This document shows, in pieces, positions 25,540-33,233 of a stretch of DNA of 64,000 bases; the first letter of the stretch is position 1; every line of letters begins with the position of its first letter. Made by a program: the position numbers and the translations under genes. Where the stretch lies: NCBI GenBank assembly GCA_050742015.1, contig JBOGEV010000118.1, positions 3,962 through 67,961 on the forward strand. Direction: 5' to 3'. The stretch is from Acidimicrobiia bacterium. Its GTDB lineage: Bacteria; Actinomycetota; Acidimicrobiia; Spongiisociales; ZC4RG35. A model generated the notes under the pieces. The model was not told the origin of the DNA and searched no databases. It saw only the letters and a list, made by a program, of their open reading frames with translations.

Positions 25540-27438
25540 ATGACCGAAGCCCGACCCTACGGTACGTGGGAGTCCCCGATGTCGGCCGCCGACGCCGTCG
25601 GCGGCGTCGTCGACTACGGACAGATCGGTGTCGACGGTGACGATCTCTACTGGCTCGAAGGCCGTCCCGGCGAAGGCGGCCGGCAGGTGCTGGTCCGCCG
25701 TGACCACTCGGGTCGGATCACCGAGATCACACCGTCGCCGATCAACGTGCGGACCCGGGTCCACGAATACGGAGGCGGGTCGTACGTGCTCGGTGAAGGC
25801 CGGCTCGCCTACTCCGAGTTCTCCGACCAGCGTCTCTATGTGGACGGCGCTCCCATCACGCCGGAACCGTCGGTCCCCGGCTCGCTGCGATATGCCGACG
25901 GCCGCTTTCTCCCCGACGGGTCGATCGTTTGCGTCCGGGAGAGCCATGGGAAAGGCGAAGCAGTCAACGAGATCGTGAGAGTCGACCCTGCCGGCAACTC
26001 GGTCAGGGTCCTGGCCTCGGGTCGGGACTTCTACTCCTCGCCCCGTCCCTCGGCCGACGGCGGCCGACTCCTTTGGCTGGAATGGGATCATCCCAACATG
26101 CCCTGGGACGGGACCACGCTGATGGTGGCCATCATCACGAACGAAGGGCTCACCGATGTCTCGCAGGTGTCCGGTGGCCGCGACGAGTCTGTGATCCAGC
26201 CGGAGTGGGGCCCCGACGGGGAAGTCGTGTTCGTCACCGACCGGAGCGGTTGGTGGAACCTCCACCGTTTCGATGGAGGAGAATCGTCACCGATCCTGAC
26301 CATGGAGGCGGACTTCGGCGGTCCCGCCTGGTTGTTCGGGTCCACGACCTTCGGGTTCCTCTCCCGAGGCCGGCTCCTGGCCGGCTTCTGGGAGGGTGGT
26401 GTCCATCACCTGGCGGTCATCGGTGCCGAGGGCACACTCACCCGTCTCCCCGATGACCTCACCTCCCACGATCACCTGGTCACCGACGGCGAGTCCCGGG
26501 CATGGTTCGTCGGTGCGGGCCCGACCACCCCGAGTGCCGTCTACGAGCTCGAGGTCGACAACGGCGGGATGGGCATCGTCCGCTCCAACCCGATGCCGGT
26601 CGAGCCGGGATACCTCCCTGAGCCCCGAATCGTCACCTTCCCAACCGACGACGGGACGATGGCCCATGGTGTGTTCTACCCGCCGACCCACCCCGGCCAT
26701 CACGGTCCCGACGACGAAAAGGCGCCGCTGATCGTGAAAGTGCACGGCGGGCCGACCACCCACGTCTTTCCCCGGCTGAGACCGGGCTTCATCTATTGGA
26801 CGAGCCGAGGCTTCGGGGTGGTCGACGTCAACTACCGGGGTTCGACCGGCTTTGGACGTTCGTATCGGGACCGACTCCGCAATGCCTGGGGCATCGCCGA
26901 CGTCGAGGACTGCATCGCCGCAGCCAAATTCCTGGCCGACGCCGGGGAAGCAGACCCCGACCGTCTGATCATCACCGGGGGCAGTGCCGGTGGGTACACG
27001 ACCTTGGCCGCGCTCGCCTTTGGCGATGCGTTCGCCGCCGGCGCCTCGTACTACGGGGTAGCCGACATCGGGCTCCTGGCCGACGACACCCACAAGTTCG
27101 AATCGCGCTATCTCGACGGTCTCGTCGGGACCGATCGCGATGTGATGAGACGGAGGTCGCCCTTGTACTCGGTCGACAAGATCACCGTCCCGGTGATCTT
27201 GTTCCAGGGTCTCGACGACCTGGTGGTGCCTCCGGAGCAGGCAAAGGTCATCGCCGACGCTTTGGCGACGAACGGCGTGCCCCACGCCCTCATCACATAT
27301 CCGGGCGAGGATCACGGCTTCCGCAAGGCGGAGAACATCATCCACAGCCTGGAGTCGGAACTGGCCTTCTATGGGGAGGTCTTCGGTTTCGAGCCTGCCG
27401 GCCCGCTCCCCGACGTCCCGCTGGTGGTGGCGCGGTGA
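25540..27438 (+). CDS. S9 family serine peptidase (prolyl oligopeptidase / acylaminoacyl peptidase type)
   Basis: 632 aa. Beta-propeller N-terminus, GGSAGGYT nucleophile elbow, and a C-terminal D...H (YPGEDHGF). Confidence 0.9.
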   Translation: MTEARPYGTWESPMSAADAVGGVVDYGQIGVDGDDLYWLEGRPGEGGRQVLVRRDHSGRITEITPSPINVRTRVHEYGGGSYVLGEGRLAYSEFSDQRLYVDGAPITPEPSVPGSLRYADGRFLPDGSIVCVRESHGKGEAVNEIVRVDPAGNSVRVLASGRDFYSSPRPSADGGRLLWLEWDHPNMPWDGTTLMVAIITNEGLTDVSQVSGGRDESVIQPEWGPDGEVVFVTDRSGWWNLHRFDGGESSPILTMEADFGGPAWLFGSTTFGFLSRGRLLAGFWEGGVHHLAVIGAEGTLTRLPDDLTSHDHLVTDGESRAWFVGAGPTTPSAVYELEVDNGGMGIVRSNPMPVEPGYLPEPRIVTFPTDDGTMAHGVFYPPTHPGHHGPDDEKAPLIVKVHGGPTTHVFPRLRPGFIYWTSRGFGVVDVNYRGSTGFGRSYRDRLRNAWGIADVEDCIAAAKFLADAGEADPDRLIITGGSAGGYTTLAALAFGDAFAAGASYYGVADIGLLADDTHKFESRYLDGLVGTDRDVMRRRSPLYSVDKITVPVILFQGLDDLVVPPEQAKVIADALATNGVPHALITYPGEDHGFRKAENIIHSLESELAFYGEVFGFEPAGPLPDVPLVVAR

Positions 27439-28280
27439 CCAGGCCTTTTCGTCATTCGTTCAAAGTCTGGGCACAGGACCATGACTGGCCCCACCTGCGC
27501 GAAACGTGGATCGAAGCCGACCGGGGAGGGTTCTGGGACATGGTCTGGCTCAACGACCATCTCTACGCGCCACGAGACGATGACACGCGGCCGATGCTGG
27601 AGGCCTACGCCTTGTTCGGGGGCTTGGCTGCGGTGACCAGTCGGATCCGCTTCGGGACGATGGTGACCGCCAACACGTTTCGTCATCCTGTTCTCCTGGC
27701 CAAGCAGGCCGTCACGCTCGATCACATGTCGCAGGGGCGGCTCGAGCTTGGCGTGGGGACCGGGTGGCAGGAAAGGGAGCACGAGGCGTTCGGCATCGAC
27801 CTCCCCCCGATCCAGGAGCGTTTCGAGAGGCTCGAAGAGACGTTCGAGATCCTGCACGGCTTGATGACCGAAGAGGTGTTCGAATTCGCGGGCAAGTACC
27901 GCACCATCACCGCAGCACGGTTCGAACCCAAGCCCGTCCAACGCCCGAGACCGCCCTTCGTCATCGGTGGCACCGGGCCGCGGCGGACCATCCCCTTGGC
28001 CGCGCGCTGGGCGGACCAATGGAACTTCCCGGACTTCACCTCGGACCTCGAGTTGTTCGTCTCGTCTCTGGGCCGGCTCGACGAGGCCTGCGAGGAGATC
28101 GGCAGGGACCGGGCCGAGGTCGAGGTCTCGGTGCAGTTCCGCTACCCGGACGATCTCGCCGAGACCGCAGACCGGGTGGCGGCCTACCGGGAGTCGGGCG
28201 CCGACCACGTCCTGGTCAGCTTCTTCCCCCCAACCAGCCTCGACCTCCCCTCCAAGGTGGCCGAGACGCTGGCGGGTTGA
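27435..28280 (+). CDS. LLM-class (luciferase-like) F420-dependent oxidoreductase
   Basis: GTG at 27435 (GTGA overlap); 281 aa. Typical LLM blocks: LNDHL, RIRFGTMVT, GRLELGVGTGW. Confidence 0.8.
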   Translation: MTRPFRHSFKVWAQDHDWPHLRETWIEADRGGFWDMVWLNDHLYAPRDDDTRPMLEAYALFGGLAAVTSRIRFGTMVTANTFRHPVLLAKQAVTLDHMSQGRLELGVGTGWQEREHEAFGIDLPPIQERFERLEETFEILHGLMTEEVFEFAGKYRTITAARFEPKPVQRPRPPFVIGGTGPRRTIPLAARWADQWNFPDFTSDLELFVSSLGRLDEACEEIGRDRAEVEVSVQFRYPDDLAETADRVAAYRESGADHVLVSFFPPTSLDLPSKVAETLAG

Positions 28281-28309
28281 GGCACGGAACCCCCCGTTTT
28301 GGCTACCCT

Positions 28310-28437
28310 GAGCGGGCCGACCCAAGGGTGGCTAGGGTTCCGGCCGATTCGTATCGGTGACCGGTCCGAGCGCCACAGAAGGCCCGCTCTGGAAGACACC
28401 GGGCTCGCACCTCACTGGACAAAAGCCTCGAGGGGAC
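28310..28437 (+). promoter_or_regulatory. ykkC-family (guanidine-I-like) riboswitch aptamer
   Basis: Conserved ykkC blocks in the right order: CTAGGGTTCCGG (28332-43), GGTCCGAG (28363-70), ACACCGG (28396-402), GGACAAAAGCC (28417-27), GAGGGGA (28430-36). A 9-bp closing helix GAGCGGGCC/GGCCCGCTC spans 28310-18 / 28381-89. Confidence 0.6.
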
Positions 28438-28439
28438 AA

Positions 28440-28465
28440 GTCGGCACGTGTCAGCGCGTGCCGAC
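28440..28465 (+). other. Hairpin between the aptamer and the SD of the transporter gene (candidate expression platform)
   Basis: GTCGGCACG-tgtcagcg-CGTGCCGAC perfect 9-bp stem, directly followed by AAGGAGAG and TTG at 28478. Confidence 0.4.
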
Positions 28466-28477
28466 CAAGGAGAGAAC

Positions 28478-29422
28478 TTGTCCGATCCGACCACCAGCCG
28501 GGAGCACACCGGCGCCATCCTCACCGCACTCTTCGTCACCGTGCTCTGGTCCTCGTCGTGGATCTTGATCCGATGGGGCCTGGACGACGAGGGTCTCCGG
28601 CCGCTGACCTTCGCCGGCATGCGTTACCTCCTCGCCTCCCTGCTCCTCATCGGCCTGGTGCTGGTGACGCCGAGAACCCGGGTGATGATCGCCGGCATGG
28701 GTCGGGCGAAATGGGGACAACTGATCCTGCTCGGATTGGTCTTCATGGCGGTGGCTCAGGGCGCCCAGTTCGTCGCGATCGACTCGCAACCAGCGGCTAC
28801 CTCGAGTCTGGTCCTTTCGCTGACCCCTCTCATCGTCGCCGCGGCCTCCACGATCACGCTTGCGGAGCGACCGAGCACGCGCCAGACAATGGGAGCTGTC
28901 CTCATCGTCCTCGGCGCCGTCGCCTATTTCTCTGGTGACCTCGGGTTCACGGTCATCGGCCTGGTGGCCGCCCTGGTCGGCCTGATCGCCAGCTCGGTGG
29001 GCTCCCTGATCGGAAGGGCTGCGAACCGGGACCGGGCACTGGCTCCTGTGGTGGTGACCGTGGTCAGCATGAGCTCAGGAGCAATCGCGCTGATGGCCGC
29101 CGGGGTGGCGGTCGAGGGTTGGCCCGCAATATCGGCTCGGGCCTGGCTCATCATCATCTGGCTGGCAGTGGTCAACACCGCGTGGGCGTTCACCCTGTGG
29201 AATCGGAGTCTCCAACTCCTCTCCGCAACCGAGTCGTCCGCAATCAACAACACGATGCTGATCCAGATCGGGTTGCTCGCCTGGCTGTTCCTCGACGAAA
29301 CTCCGGGCCCACTCGACATCCTCGGAATGCTGGCGGTGTCGGTTGGGGTTTACCTGGCCCAGCGGCCACGTGTCGACACCCGAGCCTTCCATGAGCAAGT
29401 ACCTGACCCCGGTCGCCGGTGA
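28478..29422 (+). CDS. EamA/DMT-superfamily transporter
   Basis: Track ORF starts at GTG 28448, which lies inside the hairpin. TTG 28478 has an AAGGAGAG SD 4 nt upstream. 10 TM with two EamA-type repeats. Confidence 0.75.
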   Translation: MSDPTTSREHTGAILTALFVTVLWSSSWILIRWGLDDEGLRPLTFAGMRYLLASLLLIGLVLVTPRTRVMIAGMGRAKWGQLILLGLVFMAVAQGAQFVAIDSQPAATSSLVLSLTPLIVAAASTITLAERPSTRQTMGAVLIVLGAVAYFSGDLGFTVIGLVAALVGLIASSVGSLIGRAANRDRALAPVVVTVVSMSSGAIALMAAGVAVEGWPAISARAWLIIIWLAVVNTAWAFTLWNRSLQLLSATESSAINNTMLIQIGLLAWLFLDETPGPLDILGMLAVSVGVYLAQRPRVDTRAFHEQVPDPGRR

Positions 29423-30035
29423 GCGGCTCCCCAGACGCGTCACCCAACTCGTCGTTGGTTTGGTGCTTTTCGGCTTCGGGGTCGGTCTCATGCTGCAATC
29501 GGGCCTCGGCGTTCCGCCCTGGGACGTCCTGCACCAGGGTCTTGCCCGTCAGTTCGGCCTAACCGTTGGTGTCTGGTCGATCATCATCTCGGTCATTGTG
29601 CTCTTGCTCTGGCTGCCCCTTCGGCAGGCCTACGGGATGGGGACCCTGCTCAACGCCGTGATCATCGGAGTTGTGATCGACCTGACCGGAGTCTTCCTCC
29701 CGGAGGCCGAATCGACCGTTGTCGCCTGGGTCATGCTGATCGGCGGTGTCGTCCTGATCGGGATCGCTTCCGGGCTGTACATCGGCGCCAACCTCGGCCC
29801 CGGTCCCCGGGACGGGTTGATGACCGGGATCGCCAAACGGGGGCCATCGATCAGGCTCACTCGTGGGGTCATCGAGATCACGGTCCTGGTCCTGGGATGG
29901 ATCCTGGGCGGCACCTTCGGCATCGGCACCATCGTGTTTGCCCTCGCCATCGGTCCCCTGGTCCAGTACTTCCTCCCCCGCTGGGACATCTCACCGCACC
30001 CGATGACCGACCCGCTCGACCACTCGGCCCGTTAG
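29391..30035 (+). CDS. YczE/YitT-like membrane protein
   Basis: ATG 29391 (MSKYLTP...), 214 aa. GFGVGLMLQSGLGVPPWDVL and GPGPRDGLMTGI blocks as in YczE-type proteins. 32-nt overlap with the EamA gene. Confidence 0.65.
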   Translation: MSKYLTPVAGERLPRRVTQLVVGLVLFGFGVGLMLQSGLGVPPWDVLHQGLARQFGLTVGVWSIIISVIVLLLWLPLRQAYGMGTLLNAVIIGVVIDLTGVFLPEAESTVVAWVMLIGGVVLIGIASGLYIGANLGPGPRDGLMTGIAKRGPSIRLTRGVIEITVLVLGWILGGTFGIGTIVFALAIGPLVQYFLPRWDISPHPMTDPLDHSAR

Positions 30036-30074: not shown

Positions 30075-33000
30075 GTGAGCGTGTCTCGGGAGGGGAATCC
30101 CAAATTGGGAACAGAGTCCGCGCCTGGCGCGGCTTTTCGCGACAATTCCGATCCGGGTGATGAGGGTTCCGACGCGCGGTTGCGGGTCTTCGTCTCATCC
30201 ACTCTGGGCGAGCTGAGATCGGAGCGGGAAGCCGCCAACTCGGCGATCAAGAGCCTCCGTCTGGTGCCGACCGGCGTCGATCTCGGAGGCCAGTTCGAAA
30301 AAGCCGTCGCCTCACCGGAAACCTCTGACGTCTTCGTGGGCATCTACTGGCAGTCCTACGGATGGGTTGGCGAGGACAGTCCCCGGTCGGACTTGGAGAG
30401 GGACTACGACCACAGCACCGGCCTGCCCAGGCTGATCTACGTCAAGGGCCCGGCCGGAGATCGAGACGAGGGTCTGCAACGGCTGCTCTCGCGCATCGGC
30501 CAGGACGAGCACGCGGCGATGCGCTCCTTCGAATCACCAGGTGAGCTTGCCGAGATGATGGTCGAGGACCTCGCCGGCCTGATGACCGACCACTTTCCGG
30601 CATTCGACGACCAGCCGGGATCTCTTCCGCTGGGGACCCTGACCTTCATGTTCGGGGACATCGTCGGCTCGACCTCCCTCGTCGAGCGTCTCCAGGGCGA
30701 CTACGCAGAGGTCCTCTCCGGCTATCACGAGACGGTCGCCGAGGCCAATCGGAGCAATGGCGGGACCGTCCTCGATCTCGAGGGGGAGCGCGTCTTCAGC
30801 GTCTTCCAGGATGCCTTCGAAGGGTTGAGCGCCGCCGTCGAGATCCAGACGTCGCTCGCCGAACGGGAGTGGCCCCAGGCCGCCCAGATCCGGTCCCGAC
30901 TCGGACTGCACACCGGGACCGCCCGCCTCGGATCGGGCGGGTACGTGGGCCTCGACGTCCATCGCGCATCGCGGGTCGCCGCCACGGGTCATGGAGGGCA
31001 GATAGTGATCTCGGCGCCGGTCAGGGAATTGGTGGAGGGCCGCGTCGAAGACGTCGGATGGCGCATCAAGGAACTGGGCTCGTTCGCCCTCAAGGGCCTG
31101 TCCCGGGCGGAGAAGCTGTTCCAGGTCGAAGCTCCCGGGCTCGAGACCGACTTCCCACCCCCCCGGGCCCGCTCGACGATCCGGGTTCGGCTGCCCTCAT
31201 CACAGGCCAGTCTCGTCGGCCGGGAGAAGGAATTGGCCGAGTTGGTCGACATGCTGGGACAGGCCCACGTGCGCCTAGGCACCATCATCGGACCGGGTGG
31301 CATCGGAAAGACTCGCCTCGCCCTTTCGGCGGCTGAAGTGCTCTCCCCTTCGTTTCCCGACGGTGTGTACTTCGTCAACCTGGCCCCGCTCACCGAGGCG
31401 AGCCAGGTCCTCCATGCCATTGGTGACGCCGCCGGCATCCCCATCGAGGGCGATCCGATCGACGCCCTGTCCAGCGAGTTCCAGGACCAGCAGGTCCTCC
31501 TCCTGATCGACAACTTCGAGCATGTGGTCGCCGCCGGTCCGGACATCGGGGAGCTCCTCGGCCGCAGTCCGGGGCTGAAGGCCCTGGCCACCAGCCGGGT
31601 GCCTCTACGGATCATGAGCGAATACGAATATCCCCTCGAACCGCTCGGGCTGCCCCCCATCGGGTCGGATCGGGTGGAGTCGGTCTCCACATCCGACGCG
31701 GTGCGCCTGTTCATCGAACGTGCCCTCGCCGTGATCCCTGGTTTCTCGATCGACGAGGAGAACGCCTCCCCGGTCGCTTCGATCGTTCGCATCGTGGACG
31801 GGCTTCCCCTCGCCATTGAATTGGCCGCCGCTCGTCTGCGCATGCTGAGCCCATGGGCGCTGTCGGAGCGCCTCACCAAGTCGCTCGACGCTCTCGGCGC
31901 CGGTGCCGCCGATGTCCCCAGCCGCCAGCGCACCCTGGAAGCAGCCATCGACTGGAGCTATCAGCTCTTGACCCGTGAGGAGCAGACCCTGTTCGCCCGG
32001 CTCTGCGTGTTCCAAGGGGGCTTCACGGTCGAGTCGGCGCAGGAGGTCGCGGTTGAAGACGGGGACGCGGTCGACCAGTTGATGGTCCTGGTGGAGAACA
32101 GCCTGGTTCTGCCCGCTCAGGGTGGGGATGGCCGGCTCCGGATGCTGGCGCCGATTCGGGAGTTCGGTCTCCGTCGTCTCCACGAGTCGGGCGAGTACGA
32201 CTGGCTCAAAGACCGACATGCCGGCTATTACGTCCGTCTGGCGGAATCGGTCCTGGACGACCTTCGAGGTGTCAAGCAGGCCGCCGTTGTGGAGCGATTG
32301 GCGGCCGACTGGAACAACATCGACATCGCGGCCGATTGGCTCCTGCAGCAAGGCGACCACGACTCGCTGATCCGGATGGCCTACGGGATGTGGGTTTTTC
32401 TCTGGGTCGGGAACCACATGAAGGACGGTGCTCGATGGCTGGGCGGGGTCACCGCCTACGACGAGATGGATCCGGTGCTCGCCGGGCGCTGCTGGTGGCT
32501 ACGGGGCGGGATCCTCTATGAGATGGGCCAATACGGGAAGTCGAAGCAGGCCATCGACACGGCCCTGGAGATCCTGGAGAGCAACGGAGACATCGACTGC
32601 CACAACTGGGCCGACTTCGTCTCCGCGCTCCTGCTCCCGGCCTTCGACGGCGATCAGGGTGAGGTGTGGCGAAGGGTGGAGGTCTCACTCGCCAGGTTCC
32701 GTGGCCTCGGGGACCGCTGGGGCGAGGGGTACGCCCTGATCGCACTCGGCATATTGGCCGGGTCGACGGGCGATCACGAGACTGCCGAGAAGTATCAGCT
32801 CGAGACTCGCGCCCTGGGCGCCGAGCTCGCCAACGGTGCGCTCATCGGGCTAGCCGAGGCGCAGCTCGGGTTCTCCTACGTTGCCTCAGGGAGGTTCGAC
32901 GAGGCGCGTGACGCTCTGCGGAGGTCGTTCGAGGTCTTCCGGGGCATGAACTACCGGGAGGGCATGTGCTACGCCCTCGAGGCGACAGCTTCGCTTTCGT

Positions 33001-33233
33001 TCGGACAGGGGCGGGCGGAGATGGGCATGATCGCCTTGGGCGCCGCCGAGGACGTCCGCACCAGGATCGGCCTCCATCCCTGGCCCCTGATCAGCTGGGT
33101 GTTCGACTCGCTGACCTCTCTGGCCGATTCCGTCGACGACCCGGCGTTACAGGCCGCCAGGCACGAAGGCCGCCAGATGAACCCCTTCGACGCCGCCGCA
33201 CTGGTCCTCGACGCCGCCCCGGTCCCGGCCTGA
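30075..33233 (+). CDS. STAND NTPase: DUF4062 + class III cyclase-homology domain + NB-ARC ATPase + TPR array
   Basis: 1052 aa. RVFVSSTLGELRSEREA...YWQSYGW (DUF4062-like). FMFGDIVGSTS...GLHTGTA...VHRASRV (cyclase). GPGGIGKTRLA Walker A and VLLLIDNFEH Walker B. C-terminal ~350 aa of TPR-like helices; no HTH. Confidence 0.8.
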   Translation: MSVSREGNPKLGTESAPGAAFRDNSDPGDEGSDARLRVFVSSTLGELRSEREAANSAIKSLRLVPTGVDLGGQFEKAVASPETSDVFVGIYWQSYGWVGEDSPRSDLERDYDHSTGLPRLIYVKGPAGDRDEGLQRLLSRIGQDEHAAMRSFESPGELAEMMVEDLAGLMTDHFPAFDDQPGSLPLGTLTFMFGDIVGSTSLVERLQGDYAEVLSGYHETVAEANRSNGGTVLDLEGERVFSVFQDAFEGLSAAVEIQTSLAEREWPQAAQIRSRLGLHTGTARLGSGGYVGLDVHRASRVAATGHGGQIVISAPVRELVEGRVEDVGWRIKELGSFALKGLSRAEKLFQVEAPGLETDFPPPRARSTIRVRLPSSQASLVGREKELAELVDMLGQAHVRLGTIIGPGGIGKTRLALSAAEVLSPSFPDGVYFVNLAPLTEASQVLHAIGDAAGIPIEGDPIDALSSEFQDQQVLLLIDNFEHVVAAGPDIGELLGRSPGLKALATSRVPLRIMSEYEYPLEPLGLPPIGSDRVESVSTSDAVRLFIERALAVIPGFSIDEENASPVASIVRIVDGLPLAIELAAARLRMLSPWALSERLTKSLDALGAGAADVPSRQRTLEAAIDWSYQLLTREEQTLFARLCVFQGGFTVESAQEVAVEDGDAVDQLMVLVENSLVLPAQGGDGRLRMLAPIREFGLRRLHESGEYDWLKDRHAGYYVRLAESVLDDLRGVKQAAVVERLAADWNNIDIAADWLLQQGDHDSLIRMAYGMWVFLWVGNHMKDGARWLGGVTAYDEMDPVLAGRCWWLRGGILYEMGQYGKSKQAIDTALEILESNGDIDCHNWADFVSALLLPAFDGDQGEVWRRVEVSLARFRGLGDRWGEGYALIALGILAGSTGDHETAEKYQLETRALGAELANGALIGLAEAQLGFSYVASGRFDEARDALRRSFEVFRGMNYREGMCYALEATASLSFGQGRAEMGMIALGAAEDVRTRIGLHPWPLISWVFDSLTSLADSVDDPALQAARHEGRQMNPFDAAALVLDAAPVPA

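Follow-up and report, generated by a model that had tools for sequence, protein, structure and literature searches.

Riboswitches of the ykkC fold comprise the guanidine-I class (Rfam RF00442) and the classes collected as subtype 2, among them subtype 2d, a candidate class that reportedly goes back to Nelson 2017 and Sherlock 2018/2019. This work concerns an RNA of this fold in a 64,000-nt stretch of DNA from an Acidimicrobiia bacterium (contig JBOGEV010000118.1, positions 3,962 to 67,961 of the forward strand), which we call the window and to which all coordinates refer. The RNA is encoded in the 197-nt intergenic region between the stop of a luciferase-like monooxygenase (LLM) class oxidoreductase gene (28280) and the TTG start codon (28478) of an EamA-family gene of the drug/metabolite transporter (DMT) superfamily, which is followed by a gene for a YczE membrane protein. 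The original prediction, made from the sequence of the window, had seen here a guanidine-I-like riboswitch controlling EamA and YczE as a guanidine export unit.

Subtype 2 is defined by pyrimidines at two positions of the guanidine pocket, that of the adenosine A38 of the Dickeya RNA (Battaglia numbering) or A46 of the Sulfobacillus RNA (Reiss numbering), and that of G67 (PMC5340920, PMC6031431). None of the subtype 2 RNAs tested binds guanidine (PMC6003355, PMC7266159). The subtype contains class 2a for guanosine tetraphosphate (ppGpp), 2b for phosphoribosyl pyrophosphate (PRPP), 2c for ADP/CDP, and the orphan class 2d (PMC7266159). Subtype 2d RNAs lie upstream of EamA (phn_DUF6) and TauE genes, and their ligand is undetermined (PMC7266159, PMC5912903). 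It was listed as such in 2020 (PMC7266159) and again in 2023, when a paper in NAR still treated 2d as an orphan model, and among the matches listed for the 2022-2026 literature no paper named a 2d ligand. The 2d consensus is the one nearest to guanidine-I, and a guanidine-like ligand has been speculated (PMC5912903).

In the guanidine-I RNA of Dickeya, the strands CUAGGGUUCCG and GGUCCGAGAG are nt 6-16 and 30-39, respectively (PMC5340920). Its guanidinium pocket consists of the G37-A38 bulge, the floor provided by G67 (cation-pi), the phosphate group of G68, G85 with its Hoogsteen edge, and the G84-C64 pair, which is the long-range pair of the S-turn; the exchange G67A causes an approximately 200-fold loss of affinity, and with G84A or G85A no binding is left (PMC5340920). 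The PRPP and ppGpp aptamers have a helix P0 that guanidine-I lacks, that belongs to the expression platform, and that the ligand stabilizes; the other ykkC classes are likewise ON switches (PMC6031431).

The ykkC-fold leader and its subtype

At gathering thresholds, an Rfam scan of the whole window returned zero matches. A permissive scan of the leader found RF00442 (Guanidine-I) at 28321-28435 (+), aligned over model positions 1-107 with 46.5 bits and an E-value of 2.2e-7, as computed for the 361-nt stretch searched. The gathering score of the family is 63 bits, and a score below it was the outcome that the original prediction had itself named as speaking against it. Among 13 relative loci, ten also matched RF00442, each at 38-56 bits and thus below the gathering score, so that the low score is a property of the family and not a sign of decay at the window locus. 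No other Rfam family was matched by the leader or the 13 relatives, and the PRPP and ppGpp families (Rfam 15) gave no match to the leader at E <= 10.

Independently of the RNA, 80 genomic loci were fetched by EamA protein similarity alone, and a covariance model (R1) was built from the aligned leaders. R1 located the RNA directly 5' of EamA in 51 of these 80 loci; in the window it found the RNA only once, at 28315-28446 with 125 bits. Because RF00442 is matched with the above E-value and the RNA recurs in more than half of the loci fetched by protein homology, the motif match is far above chance. In one locus (L026:2338-2460), CUCGGG replaces the usual CUAGGG and the P3 loop has three A residues (GGACAAAGCC), the R1 score still being 113 bits; this RNA may be a decaying copy.

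Conserved blocks are present in the window as CUAGGGUUCCGG (28332-28343), GGUCCGAG (28363-28370), GGACAAAAGCC (28417-28427) and UCGAGGGGA (28428-28436). The elements P1-P1a-P1b, P2 and P3, together with the blocks CUAGGGUUCCG, GGUCCGAG and GGAnAAAAGCC, make the RNA a member of the ykkC fold. P1 and P1b covary in alignment A4, with pair 20/108 being AU in 11 and GC in 11 sequences. As judged from its sequence and conservation, the leader is a genuine conserved ykkC-fold riboswitch, with a predicted aptamer at 28316-28445 and a leader extending over 28316-28477. The original prediction was thus right to place a ykkC-fold cis-regulatory RNA in the gap before EamA.

The residues of the guanidine pocket are changed. 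C28371 takes the place of the pocket adenosine; 47 of the 49 protein-anchored loci have a C there, the regular expression having failed on the other 2, and the equivalent of C28371 is invariant in the 44-sequence alignment A2. The CAC[GG] of guanidine-I is CAC[CU] in the window (28411-28412), making the equivalents of G67 and G68 a C and a U. The RF00442 alignment, which leaves an ambiguity of 1-2 nt in the 3' strand, puts G67, G68 and G85 on C, A and A. The S-turn strand of guanidine-I (cGGGAG) is replaced by UCGAGGGG / UCGAGGGGA, with UCGAGGGGA standing in for GGGAG, and where guanidine-I has its S-turn pocket, CCUC (28410-28413) and GAGG (28430-28433) could form four Watson-Crick pairs. The deviating 3' block and the possible subtype 2 variant that had been flagged in the original prediction were therefore confirmed by C28371 and UCGAGGGGA, while its guanidine-I assignment fails on the pocket adenosine, the pocket guanosines and the score.

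The ykkC fold, the pyrimidine at the A46/A38 position and the altered S-turn nucleotides are those of subtype 2 in general. Within it, the 2d gene set and the match to RF00442 as the only Rfam family place the window RNA in subtype 2d; the regulated gene is an EamA gene by Pfam, though not itself phn_DUF6-like. We consider it quite probable, on these features, that the window RNA is a ykkC subtype 2 RNA of the 2d type and not a guanidine-I riboswitch.

Like subtype 2d, the window RNA combines the ykkC fold with an altered pocket, is nearer to guanidine-I than to the PRPP/ppGpp RNAs, and lies 5' of an EamA-annotated DMT gene (PMC7266159). Its variant is also found before phn_DUF6-like EamA and TauE/SafE genes, and it shares the orphan status of 2d. 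In contrast to 2d, the window EamA belongs to another DMT clade than the phn_DUF6-like majority, and YczE has joined the operon. The window core is of type I (CACCUCAnnGGA...GCCUCGAGGGGA), compared here with a subtype 2d known by description and not by its consensus. With guanidine-I it shares the architecture, the P1 blocks CUAGGGUUCCG and GGUCCGAG, the P3 loop GGAnAAAAGCC and, putatively, the logic of an exporter ON switch. Besides pocket and score, it differs from guanidine-I by an extra terminal helix P0, by the lack of a U-tract terminator and by its genes, which are EamA and TauE in the window class, whereas guanidine-I is associated with Gdx/SugE and carboxylases. The PRPP/ppGpp classes (2b/2a) resemble it in the pyrimidine at A46 and in a terminal P0 within the expression platform that competes with an alternative hairpin (PMC6031431), P0 in the window likewise being formed by the 5' and 3' ends of the aptamer. 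Unlike in those classes, the competing hairpin of the window is located directly 5' of the Shine-Dalgarno (SD) sequence and is not a U-tract terminator. The 2a/2b gene sets (branched-chain amino-acid, glutamate and natA genes; purine biosynthesis) were not found downstream of the RNA, where only transporters and a methyltransferase were seen.

Helix P0, predicted start of transcription and expression platform

The conserved closing helix of the RNA is the covarying P0 (28316-28321/28440-28445). In the protein-anchored alignment A2, its fifth pair (14/142) is CG in 29, UA in 9 and UG in 4 sequences. A 24-sequence alignment of 23 metagenomic sequences and the window, which was fitted to R1 and thus somewhat favours the structure, has 6 of 7 P0 pairs changed on both sides. 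Some loci have wholly different yet complementary P0 strands (GGGCCA/UGGCCC in L146, GCCAAUC/GGUUGGC in L189, GCCGCCC/GGCGGGC in L101). Over the whole structure of the 24-sequence alignment, 93.6% of the cells were paired compared to 82.6% after shuffling, 18 pairs had compensatory changes, and 0 of 500 shuffles reached the observed covariation. For the other gene groups, comparison of P0 duplex energies with shuffled flanks gave Z-scores near 0 (GC-rich 14-mers). Covariation is present in P1, P1b, P2 and P0, and missing for CCUC/GAGG.

Each of the 49 protein-anchored loci tested has exactly one -10-like TAnnnT hexamer in the 30 nt that were searched 5' of the RNA, and this hexamer ends 7 nt (34 loci), 8 nt (13 loci) or 9 nt (2 loci) before the first P0 pair. 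A scan with the sigma-70 consensus found no promoter, and the promoter was called from TAnnnT conservation. Transcription probably starts near G28316. With a start at about this position, most of the 5' arm (28310-28318) of the 9-bp helix that had originally been taken to close the first domain would not be transcribed. This helix, GAGCGGGCC/GGCCCGCUC (28310-28318/28381-28389), is present in the DNA and is adopted in the single-sequence fold of the window. As a domain closer it was rejected, being strain-specific, absent from relatives and 5' of the predicted start. Its 3' arm is made up of the P2 5' strand and a strain-specific insertion, and most relatives are gapped at those columns.

Only this strain has a P2 loop of 15 nt (28386-28400, GCUCUGGAAGACACC); in L001, its closest relative (EamA identity 85%), the loop is 4 nt long. 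The 9 nt directly after the -10 box, 28310-28318, are complementary to the P2 strand and to part of this loop; the complementarity of the loop is probably due to chance and misled the single-sequence fold. The segment ACAC(C)GG (28396-28402), previously regarded as a hallmark block, falls in the same strain-specific loop and was discarded as a homologue of the guanidine-I ACACGG segment, whose true homologue is GCACCUCAC (28407-28415). In the neighbouring 3' domain, columns 110 and 127 of alignment A3 (U28416 and G28433 of the window) separate six loci (L022, L030, L031, L040, L054, L060), which have CAUGGGA with CGAGUGG, from the other sequences, which have CAYNGGA with CGAGGGG. The change could be an exchange of G-U for Y-G, and may be one evolutionary event, the six sequences being close relatives.

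The 9-bp hairpin adjoining the SD, pointed out in the original prediction, is real and conserved, and is followed by the SD and the TTG start codon. In 44 relatives, 90% of its cells are paired with hardly any covariation. Such a frozen sequence is expected, because the segment must remain complementary to two partners. P0 and the hairpin are mutually exclusive, since both use 28440-28445. Minimum-free-energy folds contained the hairpin in 37 of 44 leaders and P0 in 0 of 44; in nearest-neighbour energies, the P0 state of the window lay 9.2 kcal/mol above the hairpin state, and the average difference over the 44 leaders was 7.4 kcal/mol. With the hairpin favoured, it should be the default state, and P0 should need ligand and tertiary contacts or co-transcriptional kinetic trapping. 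No intrinsic terminator was found, as no U-tract follows the hairpin, and across leaders the SD begins 0-6 nt after the hairpin, making translational control likelier than intrinsic termination.

The 3' tail GGACAAG of the window is complementary to a segment that spans the start codon (Table 1). The resulting duplex (7 bp, -11.0 kcal/mol) is part of the minimum-free-energy fold, and the probability that the start codon is unpaired was 0.01 with the tail free and 0.29 with tail and P0 strand withheld. The start codon is occluded as in the window in L002, and likewise in L008 and L044 with GGCAUUG/CGAUGCC. As a family-wide rule, start-codon occlusion by the tail was dropped (permutation p = 0.06) and is retained only for the window and the loci nearest to it. 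Sequestration of the SD by CCUC was also dismissed for the window, where the SD GGAGAG contains no GAGG.

Other members of the family arrange their platforms differently. In RNAs with a type II core (core types are described below), GGGCUCC of the aptamer pairs with GGAGCCC at the ribosome-binding site. Type I' aptamers contain GUAGCACCU, the complement of GGGGUGCUAC, which overlaps the SD just 5' of the start codon. The window, type II and type I' layouts share the logic that a folded aptamer leaves the ribosome-binding site free. The TauE and methyltransferase groups have a P0 of the CGAC/GUCG type plus a hairpin. Loci with the type I' anti-SD arrangement, a layout unlike the hairpin platform of the window, are L092, L111, L112, L128, L142, L155, L172, L181 and L184.

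A model of the switch would be as follows. In the absence of ligand, GUCGGC (28440-28445) would form the very stable hairpin 28440-28465, which in the window strain would be extended by the tail GGACAAG and CUUGUCC, burying the TTG and keeping EamA-YczE translation low. Upon ligand binding, the 3' tail and P0 would be locked in the aptamer, hairpin and extension would be blocked, and the ribosome-binding region would be freed. The RNA would then act as an ON switch, through which the probable substrate of an exporter induces that exporter. The sequence data themselves show the fold, its conservation, the changed pocket, the covariation of P0, the genes associated with the RNA and the exclusion of P0 by the hairpin. 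We infer ligand dependence, ON polarity and the translational level of control, and regard a translational ON switch as the likeliest mechanism, with about an even chance of being correct.

Gene associations, core types and competing explanations

We scanned metagenomes independently of genes with a pattern made up of RNA positions only (CCGAGCG N{20,50} CAYCUNANNGGANARAAGCC), which recovers 41 of the protein-fetched loci, and found at least 120 loci. The first downstream open reading frame (ORF) was an EamA gene with TIGR03340 phn_DUF6 as best NCBIfam hit (81-118 bits, below cutoff) in at least 70 loci, a window-type EamA gene in at least 17, a TauE/SafE gene (PF01925) in at least 4, and a gene for an S-adenosylmethionine (SAM) dependent methyltransferase (Methyltransf_11) in at least 4. 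The downstream genes are the published 2d set plus a methyltransferase, an association that is unmentioned for 2d in the reviews consulted on the class. Four loci (L084, L088, L179, L180) have a type III-like core and a CGACU/AGGUCG P0 before the Methyltransf_11 gene.

The cores can be sorted into types. Type I (CACCUCAnnGGAnAAAAGCCUCGAGGGGA), to which the window belongs, and type I' (CACCUGAUCGGA...GCCGGGAGGGG), which occurs in lower-GC taxa, precede window-type EamA genes. Type II (CACCUGACGGGA...GCCCUGAGGGCUCC) is found before phn_DUF6-like EamA genes, and type III (CAUCUGAnnGGA...GCCYGGAGGA) before phn_DUF6-like EamA and TauE genes. In the Ilumatobacter-like genomes of group B (L008, L009, L019 from Ilumatobacter nonamiensis, L024, L044 and others), orthologues of the window EamA are preceded by a type III-like core, CAUCUGAnGGGACAAAAGCCYGGAG, which is that of the TauE- and phn_DUF6-associated RNAs. 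This speaks for a single sensor, of which the types would be interchangeable variants.

These data bear on three other explanations. A true, if divergent, guanidine-I riboswitch that senses guanidine and induces its exporter would account for RF00442 being the sole matching Rfam family, over its full length, for a regulated gene from the DMT superfamily, and for the nearness of the 2d consensus to guanidine-I with the guanidine-like ligand speculated for it (PMC5912903). However, every matching member stays below the gathering score, A38/A46 is replaced by C and G67 by a pyrimidine, and G68 and G85 do not fall on G in the model alignment. The mutations of G67, G84 and G85 that reduce or abolish binding in the Dickeya RNA (PMC5340920) and the failure of the tested subtype 2 RNAs to bind guanidine (PMC6003355, PMC7266159) make this explanation very improbable. 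The guanidine export unit of the original prediction is left without support by the pocket substitutions and the score of 46.5 versus 63 bits. Even more remote is a conserved 5' untranslated region that is bound by a protein or small RNA, or merely stabilizes the transcript, and does not sense a metabolite. That published efforts found no ligand for the class (PMC7266159), and that three syntenic genomes lost the leader and kept the genes, would agree with it. Yet the full set of ykkC tertiary-motif blocks is present, all other characterized branches of the fold bind small molecules, the layout of aptamer and switching sequence is typical of riboswitches, and the association with exporters spans several unrelated gene families.

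An explanation of some, but low, probability is that the window-type lineage (types I and I', set apart by an EamA clade of its own, the Watson-Crick CCUC/GAGG core and a clear P0) forms a ligand class distinct from the published 2d RNAs, a "subtype 2e". Types differ in the stretch of the core from CAC to GGA and in that which follows GCC; R1 scores type I RNAs at 114-136 bits and type II and III RNAs at 25-60 bits, often leaving P0 unmatched; window-type and phn_DUF6-like EamA proteins lack blastp similarity; and the P0 signal was not seen in the phn_DUF6-type majority. What counts against a separation is that the group B orthologues of the window EamA (52-61% identity) have the type III core of TauE and phn_DUF6-like loci, that P0 of the CGAC/GUCG type and a hairpin are also present in the TauE and methyltransferase groups, and that the subtype 2 signature is common to all types. 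We assign a similarly small likelihood to the view that the window-type lineage senses another molecule than the rest of 2d and, more broadly, that the ligand is a toxic metabolite, small and either anionic or methylatable, and not a guanidine-like cation. Such a ligand could be indicated by the combination of P0 (involved in polyanion recognition in 2a/2b), the TauE/SafE anion exporters, the two unrelated EamA clades and the SAM methyltransferase. If true, it would narrow the search for the ligand of this long-standing orphan class.

Several findings weigh against the preferred reading of the window RNA as a 2d-type riboswitch with a translational ON switch. The placement in 2d was made by gene association, subtype 2 signature and closeness to guanidine-I, and not by the published consensus. 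A blastp comparison of the window EamA clade with the phn_DUF6-like clade gave no match at E 1e-3. The positions of CCUC/GAGG never vary and show no covariation, so that this pairing is predicted only. The metagenome pattern demands GAGCG and CAYCU, and invariance at these positions is circular. The pairing of tail and start codon is marginal family-wide (mean unpaired probability 0.41 versus 0.45), and the hairpin leaves the SD uncovered and does not by itself explain the route of repression in most relatives. Finally, the leader is dispensable in the three genomes (L003, L004, L012) that lack it.

Taken alone, the locus adds a further member to an orphan riboswitch class that has already been described. 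It corrects an annotation error that is easily made, as a ykkC-like leader before a DMT transporter need not sense guanidine. The family also offers handles toward the 2d ligand, namely 51 genomic and more than 120 metagenomic loci, a covarying P0 that competes with an SD-adjoining hairpin, the core sub-types, the methyltransferase association, and syntenic genomes that have naturally lost the leader.

Genes and features of the window locus

The TTG of the window EamA gene aligns with the ATG/TTG starts of its orthologues. In total, 541 EamA relatives were found in genomes, with many orthologues in Acidimicrobiia and relatives. YczE and the end of EamA share 32 nt, and YczE is co-transcribed with EamA. 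YczE follows EamA in only 8 of the 80 loci, L001-L007 and L012, which form the closest clade. YczE is a late, lineage-specific extension of the operon and EamA the conserved partner of the RNA; the two do not define the gene set as the regulated pair of the original prediction.

Table 1. Coordinates of genes and RNA features in the window
Feature	Position	Strand	Remarks
F420-dependent LLM-class oxidoreductase gene	27369-28280	+	TIGR03560; directly 5' of the leader
-10-like hexamer TACCCT (TAnnnT)	28304-28309	+	conserved in register
P0, 5' strand GCCGAC	28316-28321	+	pairs with 28440-28445
5' domain	28328-28376	+	RF00442 alignment; contains the P1a/P1b hairpin
P1 (GUGGC/GCCAC)	28328-28332/28372-28376	+	covaries in alignment A4
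5'-domain internal-loop block CUAGGGUUCCG	28332-28342	+	
5'-domain internal-loop block GGUCCGAGCG	28363-28372	+	
C replacing the pocket adenosine of guanidine-I	28371	+	GAG[C]G replaces GAG[A]G
P2 hairpin (GGCCC/GGGCU)	28381-28405	+	all 5 pairs covary in alignment A4
3' domain GCACCUCACUGGACAAAAGCCUCGAGGGGA	28407-28436	+	invariant across type I relatives
P3 (GG/CC)	28417-28418/28426-28427	+	closes the A-rich loop
3' tail GGACAAG	28434-28440	+	complementary to CUUGUCC (28477-28483), spanning the start codon
P0, 3' strand GUCGGC	28440-28445	+	5' arm of the platform hairpin (switching sequence)
Platform hairpin GUCGGCACG/CGUGCCGAC	28440-28448/28457-28465	+	9 bp, 8-nt loop
SD AAGGAGAG	28467-28474	+	
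TTG start of EamA	28478-28480	+	
EamA/DMT-family transporter gene	28478-29422	+	Pfam EamA, E 9e-35; conserved regulated gene
YczE membrane protein gene	29391-30035	+	NCBIfam NF052291, 241 bits versus cutoff 205

Directly 3' of YczE, a 1052-aa ORF (30075-33233, +) encodes a protein with DUF4062, an adenylate/guanylate cyclase catalytic domain, an AAA ATPase domain and TPR; no sign was seen that it belongs to the riboswitch operon. L003, L004 and L012, the relatives in which upstream genes were checked, also keep the LLM oxidoreductase neighbour. In all three, the order LLM-EamA-YczE is preserved and the leader is absent, with an intergenic region of about 35 nt (approximately 2460-2500 in each locus). 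This absence is a natural loss.

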